Part shown: one piece after another, positions 55,314 to 57,803 of the stretch
How the letters are laid out: each line of letters opens with the position of its first letter
Position numbering within the stretch: position 1 is the first letter of the stretch
From: Gemmatimonadales bacterium
GTDB taxonomy: Bacteria; Gemmatimonadota; Gemmatimonadetes; Gemmatimonadales; GWC2-71-9
Direction of reading: 5' to 3'
DNA: 64,000 nt
Assembly (NCBI GenBank): GCA_035500495.1
Contig: DATJXC010000073.1
Location: 4,841 to 68,840, forward strand
The notes under the pieces: generated by a model
What the model saw: the letters and a program-made list of their open reading frames with translations, nothing else
What the model was told of the DNA's origin: nothing
Databases searched by the model: none
Translations under genes and position numbers: made by a program

Positions 55314-55796
55314 TCAGGGATACGTTCCCATCCCGTCCAGCACCTGGGCGAGCAGCTGGGACAGCTGGCGGAGCTTCCGCGACCCCACGTGGCCGATGAG
55401 CGCGCGCGGCATCCGCTGGGAGTGCGGGTCCAGCTCGCGCAGCAGCTCGAGCCCCTTCCCCGTGATCTCGACCTCGACCACTCGGCGGTCCTGCTCGCTC
55501 CGCGCCCGCTTCACAAGGCCCCGGGCGTCGAGCCGGTCCACGAGCCGCGTGACGTCCGGCTCGCGGGCAATCGTCCGCTCGCCGATCTCGCCGGCTGTGA
55601 GCGACTGCGGGTGACTCCCCCGCAGGATGCGGAGCACGTTGTACTGGCTGGTGGTCAGGTCGGCTTCGGACTTGAGGAAGCGCTCCCACGGCGCCAGGAT
55701 CCGCGCCGCGACCATGCGGATCCCGAGCATCGCCTCCTGCTCCGGAGAGCCGAACGCCCGTCGTTGCTTGATCTCGTGACCGATGGTGGGATGCAC
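55314..55796 (-). CDS. MarR family transcriptional regulator
   Basis: LT.SQYNVLRILR, DVTRLVDRL..RGLV.R..S.QDRRVV; start placed at GTG 55796. Confidence 0.9.
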   Translation of the reverse strand: MHPTIGHEIKQRRAFGSPEQEAMLGIRMVAARILAPWERFLKSEADLTTSQYNVLRILRGSHPQSLTAGEIGERTIAREPDVTRLVDRLDARGLVKRARSEQDRRVVEVEITGKGLELLRELDPHSQRMPRALIGHVGSRKLRQLSQLLAQVLDGMGTYP

Positions 55797-55803
55797 GGTG
55801 AGG

Positions 55804-55840
55804 AGATTAGTTGTTGGCACGAATATTGTCAAGACTGACA
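55804..55840 (-). promoter_or_regulatory. sigma-70 promoter for marR-cupin with overlapping palindromes (candidate operator)
   Basis: TTGACA (55832-55827)-N17-TAATCT (55809-55804); palindromes TTGGCA-N7-TGTCAA and TGTCA-N4-TGACA. Confidence 0.8.
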
Positions 55841-55860
55841 TCTACCGCTCTTGAACGGGC

Positions 55861-55990
55861 TGTTAGCTTTTCAGTGACGCGTGAAGGTGCGCGTCCCAGG
55901 TTGGGAGCGATCCGCCAGCTTCGACGGATCGAGGCGTTGCCCAAACGGCCCCCCAGCCCCGGTTCCCACAACCAATGGGAGCAGCGCCCG
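55861..55990 (+). promoter_or_regulatory. Extended -10 promoter and structured 5' leader of nadA (riboswitch candidate)
   Basis: TGtTAGCTT at 55861-55869; several hairpins; SD GGGAG within a hairpin. Confidence 0.5.
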
Positions 55991-56959
55991 ATGACCGCAG
56001 GGACCACCACCCCCAGCACCCGCCGCTTGATCGCCGAAATTCAGGAGCTCCGCGTCGAGCGCGGCGCCGCGATTCTCGCGCACAACTACCAGCGCCCGGA
56101 GATCCAGGACCTGGCCGACGTCGTCGCCGACTCGCTGAAAATGGCGCGGAGCGCGACCGAGATCGACGCCGCGGTGCTCGTGATCTGCGGCGTGCACTTC
56201 ATGGCCGAGACCGCCGCGATCGCGAACCCCGGCAAGCGGGTCCTGATCCCCGACCCTACCGCCGGCTGCTCGCTCGCCGCCACGATCCAAGCGGCCGACG
56301 TGCGCGCCTGGCGCGCCACCCACCCGGACGGCCTGGTCGTGTCCTACGTCAATACGTCGGCGGAGGTGAAGGCCGAATCGGATTACTGCTGTACCTCCGG
56401 CAATGCGGTGGCCGTGATCAACGCCCTCCCACCCGACGTGCCGGTGCTGTTCCTGCCCGACTTCTTCCTTGGGAACTACCTGCGACGGGTGACCGGGCGA
56501 GCACTCGACGTCTGGATGGGGGAGTGCCATGTCCACGCCGGATTGACCCGAGAGGCGCTGGAGCAGCGCCGCGCCGAGTATCCCGACGCGGAATTCCTGG
56601 TGCACCCGGAGTGCGGCTGCGTCACGAGTGCCATGTACTACGCCGCAGCCGAAGGCGACGTGGCGAACGGCCGGATGCGGATCGTCTCGACCGAACAGAT
56701 GACCCGGCGAGCCCGGGACTCCAAGGCCCGCCGCTTCGTCGTCGCCACCGAGACCGGCGTCTTGCACCGCCTGCGCCGGGAGAACCCTGGTAAAGATTTC
56801 ATCGCCGCCGCTGAAACCGCCGAGTGCCGTTACATGAAGCAGATCACGCTCGAGAACCTGCGCGATGCCCTGCGTGAGAATCAATACGAGGTGACCGTGC
56901 CGTCCGCGACCGCGGCGCGGGCACGCCGCGCGATCGAGCGGATGCTGGCGATTGGCTGA
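55991..56959 (+). CDS. nadA: Quinolinate synthase
   Basis: ILAHNYQ, CGVHFMAETA, AGCSLA, YVNTSA, CTSGNA, C.VH, HPECGC, C.YMK; start ATG 55991. Confidence 0.96.
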   Translation: MTAGTTTPSTRRLIAEIQELRVERGAAILAHNYQRPEIQDLADVVADSLKMARSATEIDAAVLVICGVHFMAETAAIANPGKRVLIPDPTAGCSLAATIQAADVRAWRATHPDGLVVSYVNTSAEVKAESDYCCTSGNAVAVINALPPDVPVLFLPDFFLGNYLRRVTGRALDVWMGECHVHAGLTREALEQRRAEYPDAEFLVHPECGCVTSAMYYAAAEGDVANGRMRIVSTEQMTRRARDSKARRFVVATETGVLHRLRRENPGKDFIAAAETAECRYMKQITLENLRDALRENQYEVTVPSATAARARRAIERMLAIG

Positions 56960-57803
56960 GCCCGCCTTCGCACTCACGGAAGTGCGTGAGGCCCTGGCGG
57001 AGGACCGGGCCACCGAAGACGTCACCACCCGCCTGTTGGGCGCAGCCGCCGACGGTCCCGCCGTAGCGCGGTTCATTGCCGAGGCTCCTTGCGTCATCGC
57101 CGGTCTCCAGGTCGCCACGACCGTGTTCCGCGAGCTCGACAGAGAAGCCCATCTCGAGGCGGCTCCGGGAATCCGGGACGGCAGTCAGGTCAAGGCGGGT
57201 ACCGTCTTCGCCACCGTGCGCGGTCGGGCCGGCGCGCTGCTCGCCGGGGAACGGGTCGCCCTCAATTTCCTGCAGCGCCTCTCCGGCATCGCCACGCTGA
57301 CCCGTCAGGCCGTCGACGCCGTGGCGGGCACCCGCGCGAAAATCACCCACACGCGGAAGACCACTCCCGGGCTGCGGGCCCTCGAGCTCTATGCCGTGCG
57401 GGCGGGTGGCGGCGTGGAGAACCGGGTGTCACTCGCCGATGCGGTGCTCTGGAAGGACAATCACTGGGCGCTGCTGGAGCGCGACGGGCAAGGCAAGACG
57501 TTGGCCGATCTGCTGCGGTCTGCACCTGCCGTCCCGGTGATCGTAGAGGTAGAGAACGAAACGCAGCTCGAGGCCGCGCTCGCAGCCGGCGTTTCCCATC
57601 TGTTGATCGACAATCAATCGCCCGAGCGCCTCGCCTCCTGGGCCCGGCGCGTGGGGGGGGGCCCCAAGGTCACGATCCAGGCCTCAGGGGGCATCACCTC
57701 AGCGAACGCCCGCGCCTACGCCGAGGCCGGGGCCACCCTCATCGCGATCGGCGCTCTGACTCATTCCGCCCCGGCCATTCCGATCCGCTGCGACCTCTCC
57801 TAG
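56952..57803 (+). CDS. nadC: Quinolinate phosphoribosyltransferase
   Basis: ERVALNFLQRLSGIATLT, TRKTTPG, KDNH, VEVE, ASGGI. Confidence 0.95.
   Translation: MAEPAFALTEVREALAEDRATEDVTTRLLGAAADGPAVARFIAEAPCVIAGLQVATTVFRELDREAHLEAAPGIRDGSQVKAGTVFATVRGRAGALLAGERVALNFLQRLSGIATLTRQAVDAVAGTRAKITHTRKTTPGLRALELYAVRAGGGVENRVSLADAVLWKDNHWALLERDGQGKTLADLLRSAPAVPVIVEVENETQLEAALAAGVSHLLIDNQSPERLASWARRVGGGPKVTIQASGGITSANARAYAEAGATLIAIGALTHSAPAIPIRCDLS

Follow-up and report, generated by a model that had tools for sequence, protein, structure and literature searches.

NAD+ is among the few universal cofactors for which almost no RNA sensors are known. The regulators NiaR, NadR, and NrtR are DNA-binding proteins that act on operators, and their regulons take in nadB, nadA, nadC, and salvage amidase genes. 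Control of translation by an RNA is exemplified by the SAM-II and preQ1-II riboswitches, which are H-type pseudoknots in which the loop of a hairpin pairs with the downstream ribosome-binding site and in which the ligand stabilizes the pseudoknot.

The published NAD+ riboswitches fall into two classes. NAD+-I (the nadA motif, RF03013), from Acidobacteria, is composed of two tandem bulged stem-loops, each with a ACANCCCC bulge; in its domain 1, the strand opposite the bulge carries a GYG loop at a distance of 7 bp (PMC6859854; PMC7297122). NAD+-II (the pnuC motif) is an RNA of ~50-65 nt with helices P1/P1a and a pseudoknot, which precedes pnuC transporter genes and occurs in Streptococcus only (PMC7749635; PMC10085692). 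Each class is thus confined to a single lineage, with ~100 copies in Acidobacteria and ~130 in Streptococcus, and the scarcity of NAD+ riboswitches is a question that their discoverers raise explicitly (PMC6859854; PMC7749635). In the literature on NAD+ riboswitches, nadA, and Gemmatimonadetes that was covered, which lies mostly outside the subscription journals, no description of the RNA considered here was found.

This RNA forms the leader of nadA in the window, i.e., the whole 64,000-nt stretch of Gemmatimonadales DNA that was analyzed. The start codon of nadA is the ATG at 55991, its product is NadA, and the leader (55876-55990) is one member of a conserved RNA family of ~115 nt. An earlier note, made on the same DNA, had read from the letters a set of elements that are all present: TAGCTT (55864-55869) preceded by TGT, GGGAG (55977-55981), GTTCCCA (55962-55968), TGGGAGC (55976-55982), GGTTGGGAGC (55899-55908), TCCCA and TGGGA (55894-55906), and the pairs GACGCG/CGCGTC and GATCCG/CGGATC. 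Comparison across the family assigns several of them a different role, and the features of the locus, all on the plus strand, are as follows:

55864-55869, plus strand: -10-like box TAGCTT, a predicted promoter element resting on TANNNT conservation, which would place the transcript start at ~55875-55876.
55876-55895, plus strand: P0, the 5'-terminal hairpin (7 bp, 6-nt loop), whose stem is perfect in 90 of 96 copies.
55896-55898, plus strand: CCA linker between P0 and P2 (the C-tract), with two C kept in 89 of 96 copies and less conserved than loop L4.
55899-55905, plus strand: 5' strand of P2, GGUUGGG, which pairs with 55952-55958.
55906-55907, plus strand: invariant AG at the P2-P3 junction, at least 97% in the family consensus.
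55908-55931, plus strand: P3 hairpin (7 bp, variable loop), with compensatory changes at 7 of 8 pairs and 95.9% of cells paired.
55932-55951, plus strand: invariant core, composed of an A, stem P4 (GGCG with C-G-GCC), the 9-nt loop L4, and then a C, with near-total identity.
55937-55945, plus strand: loop L4, UUGCCCAAA, which caps P4.
55952-55958, plus strand: 3' strand of P2, CCCAGCC, which pairs with 55899-55905.
55959-55975, plus strand: variable 3' segment with the small hairpin P5 (GGUU/AACC, 55961-55964 with 55970-55973), ending in a conserved ACCAA.
55976-55982, plus strand: UGGGAGC, the ribosome-binding site at the invariant 3' end of the motif and the proposed partner of L4, with U, GGG, and G each kept in 92-96 of 96 copies.
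55991-56959, plus strand: nadA (quinolinate synthase), the regulated gene (Pfam NadA, E = 1e-108).
56952-57803, plus strand: nadC (quinolinate phosphoribosyltransferase), whose start overlaps the end of nadA (Pfam QRPTase_C, 5.8e-40; QRPTase_N, 4.1e-19).

The 5' end of the transcript was placed by comparison. A TANNNT box ends 6-7 nt 5' of P0 in 55 of the 96 copies, and the transcript therefore probably begins with P0, at ~55876, giving a leader of ~115 nt. The earlier note had reached the same length from an extended -10 element; the box itself is recovered in these relatives, whereas its TG extension is not conserved. A scan with the sigma-70 consensus returned no full promoter, and a scan for intrinsic terminators found none, which makes transcription attenuation of the terminator type unlikely. 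Folded as a single sequence, the leader is not more stable than expected by chance (z = -1.09; 29 of 200 shuffles reached an equally good fold). Upstream of nadA lies a divergent gene of the MarR type (55314-55841, minus strand). At the start of this gene, in an AT-rich patch, there is a perfect inverted repeat, TGTCA-agac-TGACA (55827-55840), which may be the operator of the MarR-family gene itself; the repeat is not conserved beside nadA in the relatives.

Conservation of the leader was first apparent among close relatives of the window genome. Forty related genomes were searched with the NadA protein, and nadA was present in only part of them. All seven genomes of the same genus whose NadA is 75-85% identical to that of the window carry a block of ~115 nt directly upstream of the gene, whereas genomes with a more distant NadA (53-60% identity) are without it. 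The genes farther upstream of the leader all differ among these seven relatives. Across the window and the seven, the identity of the leader core is 0.86, as compared with 0.80 for the nucleotides of nadA and 0.63 for its third codon positions, indicating that this non-coding stretch is more constrained than the gene that it precedes. As a side observation, a search of 23 other genomes of the genus, several of which are more than 90% complete, detected nadA in no more than 8, and de novo NAD synthesis thus seems patchy within the genus.

Wider searches were made with sequence patterns and with covariance models, the latter built from the sequences that the patterns had found and then run on samples of genomes. 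A 20-nt core pattern was located in 24 genome contigs, which come almost entirely from soil Gemmatimonadales metagenome-assembled genomes (MAGs), one being labeled Vicinamibacterales, and a gapped form of the core pattern occurs in at least 120 metagenome stretches among the matches listed. By covariance model, the element is present in 22 of 151 genomes in a sample of the phylum. The family of the window genome accounts for 19 (71 genomes sampled) and a second family for 2 (31 sampled), and ten other families gave none among 48 genomes. In a second order, labeled Vicinamibacterales, it was detected in 4 of 121 genomes, and in none of 150 further genomes of the phylum to which that order belongs. 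The window genome has a single copy. The final alignment (A7) comprises 96 distinct copies, the majority belonging to a single family of Gemmatimonadales. Two thirds of the copies were collected by a fixed 16-20 nt pattern, and it is from the 34 located by protein or by model that the invariance of the pattern stretch is judged.

Counted on A7, 93.3% of cells are paired in the model structure, as compared with 85.1% in shuffles and 30-56% when the partners are slid by 1-3 columns; 21 of the 29 model pairs change on both sides, and mutual information selects the same pairs. Alignments of the A7 type were fitted to the model, and the independent check is a fresh alignment and fold of 34 diverse copies with MAFFT and RNAalifold, which returns P2, P3, and the outer pairs of P4 and finds compensation at 14 of 17 pairs. 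The comparison of leaders that the earlier note had called for thus yields both conservation and covariation, and P0, P2, and P3 are supported by covariation. P0 and P3 are the two "further hairpins" of that note. The arms of P0 occur in 44 distinct pairs, its loop measures 3-13 nt, and its pair types change in step (e.g., A-U to G-C); such variable spacing fits an RNA hairpin better than the operator of a protein. In P2, all 8 pairs of the family helix change on both sides, and mutual information adds one outer pair.

The interior of the motif behaves in the opposite manner. The four pairs of P4 and the L4 positions UU, CCC, and AA are identical in 95-96 of the 96 copies, and this also holds in the 34 copies that were found without a sequence pattern; the family loop is UUNCCCAAN, in which only loop positions 3 and 9 vary. 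Since P4 and the proposed pseudoknot never vary, covariation can neither support nor refute them. Of the inner P4 pairs drawn by RNAalifold (U-A, U-A), one was rejected, as its 3' partner varies freely (A, U, C, G). The GG/CC pairs of P5 are kept in 88 and 74 of the 96 copies with little variation. The motif closes with an invariant ACCAAUGGGAG, and an invariant AAUGGGAG carries the ribosome-binding site. Taken together, the unpaired bases kept in at least 95% of copies are the AG of the junction, the A before P4, the loop UUNCCCAAN, and ACCAAUGGGAG.

The element is also constant in the genes that it precedes. Directly downstream lies nadA, followed by nadC, in 46 of the 96 copies, a hydrolase of the isochorismatase family in 22, and nadB, confirmed as L-aspartate oxidase, in 3. 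In a further 16 copies, the gene is nadB (of a nadB-nadA-nadC operon), reached through a reading frame of 13 codons, and in 6 copies it is nadA, reached through a frame of the same kind; 3 copies run into the end of a contig. No other kind of downstream gene was found among the 96 copies, of which 93 have readable downstream sequence. These 93 copies end 5-12 nt before the start codon of nadA, of nadB (or the coupled leader frame), or of the hydrolase. Because GGGAG is followed by a start codon at this distance in every gene context, it can be identified as the ribosome-binding site and, at the same time, as part of the conserved RNA.

The 13-codon frame starts 7-8 nt after the ribosome-binding site (L032, L033, L043, L053, L054, L091, and 16 other loci) and encodes a peptide of approximately M-S-x-x-G/S-I-K/R-G-S-x-T-x-x. 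The TGA stop of the frame and the GTG start of the following gene, nadB or nadA, overlap in the sequence GTGA. The arginines of the peptide are encoded by AGA, AGG, CGG, or CGA, or are replaced by lysine, and this variety of codons, together with the lysine exchange, points to selection on the peptide. The frame resembles a relay that would carry the effect of the switch to the operon by way of translation. Two genomes carry two copies of the element each, G015 (L177 and L198) and G134 (L194 and L199), with one copy before nadA or nadB and the other before the hydrolase; as predicted from the placement of the copies, this is a small RNA-controlled regulon inside one genome.

The motif-linked hydrolase belongs to the Pfam family Isochorismatase (3e-40). 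Its relatives of solved structure include several nicotinamidases (e.g., 3o90, at 5.5e-17), and its best match is an unassigned amidase-related protein. For a more precise name, the Atlas offers generic names only, and the NCBIfam matches of the hydrolase to RutB, BiuH, and PncA all lie below their cut-offs. The protein has a D-x-H ... W-P-x-H stretch, which we take to resemble the metal site of nicotinamidases. It is plausible from these resemblances that the hydrolase is a nicotinamidase and, thus, has a role in NAD salvage. No close homolog of it was found in the window genome.

These data establish that the nadA leader, as read by comparative sequence analysis, is a conserved, structured, cis-regulatory RNA of NAD-pathway genes that belongs to no catalogued family. 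The corresponding proposal of the earlier note, a structured cis-acting leader tied to the NAD pathway, is borne out by the covarying helices and by the gene association in 93 of 96 copies. As to what the leader would sense, we consider it rather probable that it represents a new class of riboswitch for NAD+ or for an intermediate of the pathway (synthesis or salvage), and that it probably switches translation off through a pseudoknot formed by L4.

The alternative that survives best is that the binding partner of the leader is a protein or some other trans-acting factor reporting NAD status, such as an unrecognized RNA-binding regulator or an enzyme of the pathway, rather than a small molecule. 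The evidence for a cis-regulatory structured RNA applies equally to such a leader, direct ligand binding being something that we infer, and the regulons of NiaR, NadR, and NrtR cover the same set of genes. Those proteins, however, act on DNA operators, whereas the conserved element here is a transcribed RNA with covarying helices, and no 3H domain of the NiaR type was found in the window genome. Furthermore, no conserved candidate for a protein regulator lies nearby: the upstream neighbors of the element differ among the relatives, and the divergent MarR gene is not common to them. The many invariant unpaired bases of the junction and the built-in ribosome-binding site are typical of riboswitch aptamers, and the hydrolase-linked element in the second order would need its partner protein there too. 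A protein-bound leader is thus an unlikely explanation.

If the leader is a riboswitch, it could in principle be a distant or rearranged member of NAD+-I, a class that binds the ADP moiety of NAD+. Like that class, it is a 5' leader of nadA whose 3' end includes the ribosome-binding site, OFF logic would be expected of it, and it is rare and restricted to a lineage; the AGCG beside a helix end and the C-run after A-N-C-G-G loosely recall the AGYG loop and the ACANCCCC bulge. The earlier note had seen such a likeness in ACAACC and in GGUUGGG..AGCG; the former has turned out to be a variable stretch in the family and the G-run to be the strand of a helix. In layout, the two RNAs differ: in place of two tandem bulged stem-loops, there is one multi-helix junction, in which P2 encloses P3 and P4, together with a 5' hairpin. 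ACANCCCC occurs in 1 of the 96 copies, and the window has ACAACCAA, in a variable segment. Unlike NAD+-I, the element is also associated with nadB and the hydrolase. Even a rearranged NAD+-I does not fit, as P2 has AGCG and the C-run at one and the same end, whereas the bulge and the GYG loop of NAD+-I lie at opposite ends of a 7-bp helix and on opposite strands; moreover, AGCG becomes AG-AG in copies of the hydrolase type.

Searches of Rfam agree with this. No family matched the whole window at the gathering score. With permissive thresholds (E ≤ 10 on 55780-56060 and E ≤ 5 on 12 diverse members), only chance matches to miRNA and lncRNA models were obtained and none to an NAD+ class, so that the search with nadA and NAD+ models foreseen by the earlier note came out empty. 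Membership in NAD+-I is therefore very improbable, and between the two options which that note had left standing, a variant or a new class, the latter is the better one: this is not ordinary NAD+-I. With NAD+-II, the element would share a pseudoknot that includes the ribosome-binding site and a translational OFF response to an NAD-related ligand, and both combine high conservation with little covariation within the pseudoknot. However, at ~115 nt with another arrangement of helices, it differs from NAD+-II in sequence, size, and fold, it precedes nadA, nadB, or the hydrolase and never pnuC, and it has no Rfam match to that class.

Since the ribosome-binding site forms part of the conserved RNA and is likely hidden by it, the question of its partner arises. 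Base-pair probabilities across the family gave no consistent partner for the site, and three candidates were compared. The first is that of the earlier note, which had proposed three mutually exclusive hairpins: a local one (55962-55982) that hides the site, a second pairing (55899-55908 with 55962-55973) that opens it, and a third hairpin (55894-55906) that blocks the second. In the window genome, the local hairpin is real and stable by ~7.4 kcal/mol: with it, the energy of the consensus fold drops from -42.0 to -49.4 kcal/mol and thereby reaches the unconstrained optimum (-49.6). Its 5' arm (55962-55968), on the other hand, lies in the least conserved segment of the motif, and its complementarity to the site equals that of shuffled sequences over the family (mean z +0.07; -10.2 kcal/mol here, as compared with ~-3 kcal/mol in most relatives). 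The G-run that was taken for an anti-sequestor forms the 5' strand of P2, in which GGTTGGG pairs with CCCAGCC at 55952-55958, a partner that is fixed by covariation; its proposed pairing with 55962-55973 is not conserved. The TCCCA/TGGGA hairpin is not conserved either, being missing from groups in which those positions read CCCCUUGCUGGG or CCCCGCGCUGGG. As a set, the three hairpins are thus not conserved, and we regard this scheme as highly doubtful; what stands of it is that the ribosome-binding site lies within a conserved RNA that likely hides it, and that the site may be concealed and exposed in alternation.

The second candidate is the C-tract between P0 and P2, whose complementarity to the site exceeds that of shuffled sequences (mean z -1.10). 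Its pairing with the ribosome-binding site appears both in the RNAalifold structure and in that of the covariance model, where one pair changes from G-C to C-G in 12 copies. Conservation of the tract (83-89 of 96) is below that of L4, and only two of its C are free once P0 forms; a closing helix of this kind was rejected as the main structure and is kept only as a rival. The third candidate is loop L4, which exceeds shuffled sequences to about the same degree as the C-tract (z -1.18) and whose CCCA is complementary to the UGGG of the site, both being invariant. The position that flanks this pairing is G.A in 67 copies, G-U in 20, U-A in 3, and A.A in 3. L4 is favored because the partner of an unchanging site must itself stay fixed. 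The geometry would be that of an H-type pseudoknot, with a 4-bp stem, a 1-nt loop, a second stem of 5-6 bp, and a 2-nt loop, and from these invariant complementary bases we infer an L4/ribosome-binding-site pseudoknot.

Regulation by the preferred riboswitch could proceed as follows. The transcript would begin at ~55876 with the stable hairpin P0, and the long-range helix P2 would close a junction that holds the variable P3 and the invariant P4/L4. The invariant AAUGGGAG, which is the ribosome-binding site, is located ~25 nt farther on. Upon binding of the putative ligand, the CCCA of L4 would pair with the UGGG of the ribosome-binding site, forming an H-type pseudoknot with connecting loops of 1 nt and 2 nt. 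This pseudoknot would hide the site and thereby turn off the translation of nadA-nadC. In the relatives, the same element would control nadB-nadA-nadC, by way of the translationally coupled 13-codon leader frame, and the nicotinamidase-like hydrolase. The proposed mechanism resembles that of SAM-II and preQ1-II, including the short connecting loops; in sequence, ligand, and architecture, the RNAs are unrelated, and the pseudoknot here is deduced only from invariant complementary bases.

A conserved 5' untranslated structure that senses nothing, serving in mRNA stability or in the constitutive tuning of translation, would account for P0, which resembles protective hairpins in lying at the very 5' end; such an element would have no need for ~35 invariant bases in the junction and loops or for a strict link to one pathway, and we give this reading scant credence. 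The same holds for its variant, an N-terminal coding extension of NadA, for which the reading frame is indeed open from TTG 55811 in the window and through the leader in 59 of 93 copies, but which is excluded as the cause of the conservation by in-frame stops in 34 of the 93 leaders, by start-codon spacing that varies by non-multiples of three, by compensatory changes at the RNA level, and by the presence of the element before three unrelated proteins.

The open frame is of practical note for annotation. From TTG 55811, NadA would have 382 amino acids instead of 322, and automatic gene calls may extend the protein by 60 residues over the non-coding leader. Reading the leader as a non-coding RNA corrects such an annotation.

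A fuller form of the favored reading, to which we would assign about an even chance, is that the element constitutes a third, structurally unrelated class, which responds to NAD+ or to an intermediate sensed by no known RNA (NaMN, nicotinate, or nicotinamide), is common in soil Gemmatimonadales, acts through a CCCA-loop pseudoknot, and employs the 13-codon relay in operons that begin with nadB. If true, a third class with an unrelated fold and ~100 distinct copies would be placed over nadB, nadA, nadC, and a probable salvage gene, and would provide a new aptamer. Its ligand may then be a pathway intermediate that no known RNA senses. The element would also be a regulatory marker of NAD metabolism in an abundant and mostly uncultured phylum of soil bacteria.

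Two further observations concern the history of individual copies. The hydrolase-type copies of the second phylum (L055/L200 and L201-L203) precede a protein that is ~70% identical to those of Gemmatimonadales, which suggests, for the copies labeled Vicinamibacterales, either that the gene and its leader were transferred together or that the contigs were mis-binned. The locus L097:628-1642 of genome G010 (also L002 and L052) contains, besides the intact motif, a degenerate copy of its 5' half ~760 nt upstream. Between the two, on the opposite strand, are reading frames that, as read from their translations, resemble a PIN-domain protein and a ribbon-helix-helix protein, and the arrangement looks as if a putative VapBC-type toxin-antitoxin pair had been inserted into the leader of nadA and had duplicated part of it.
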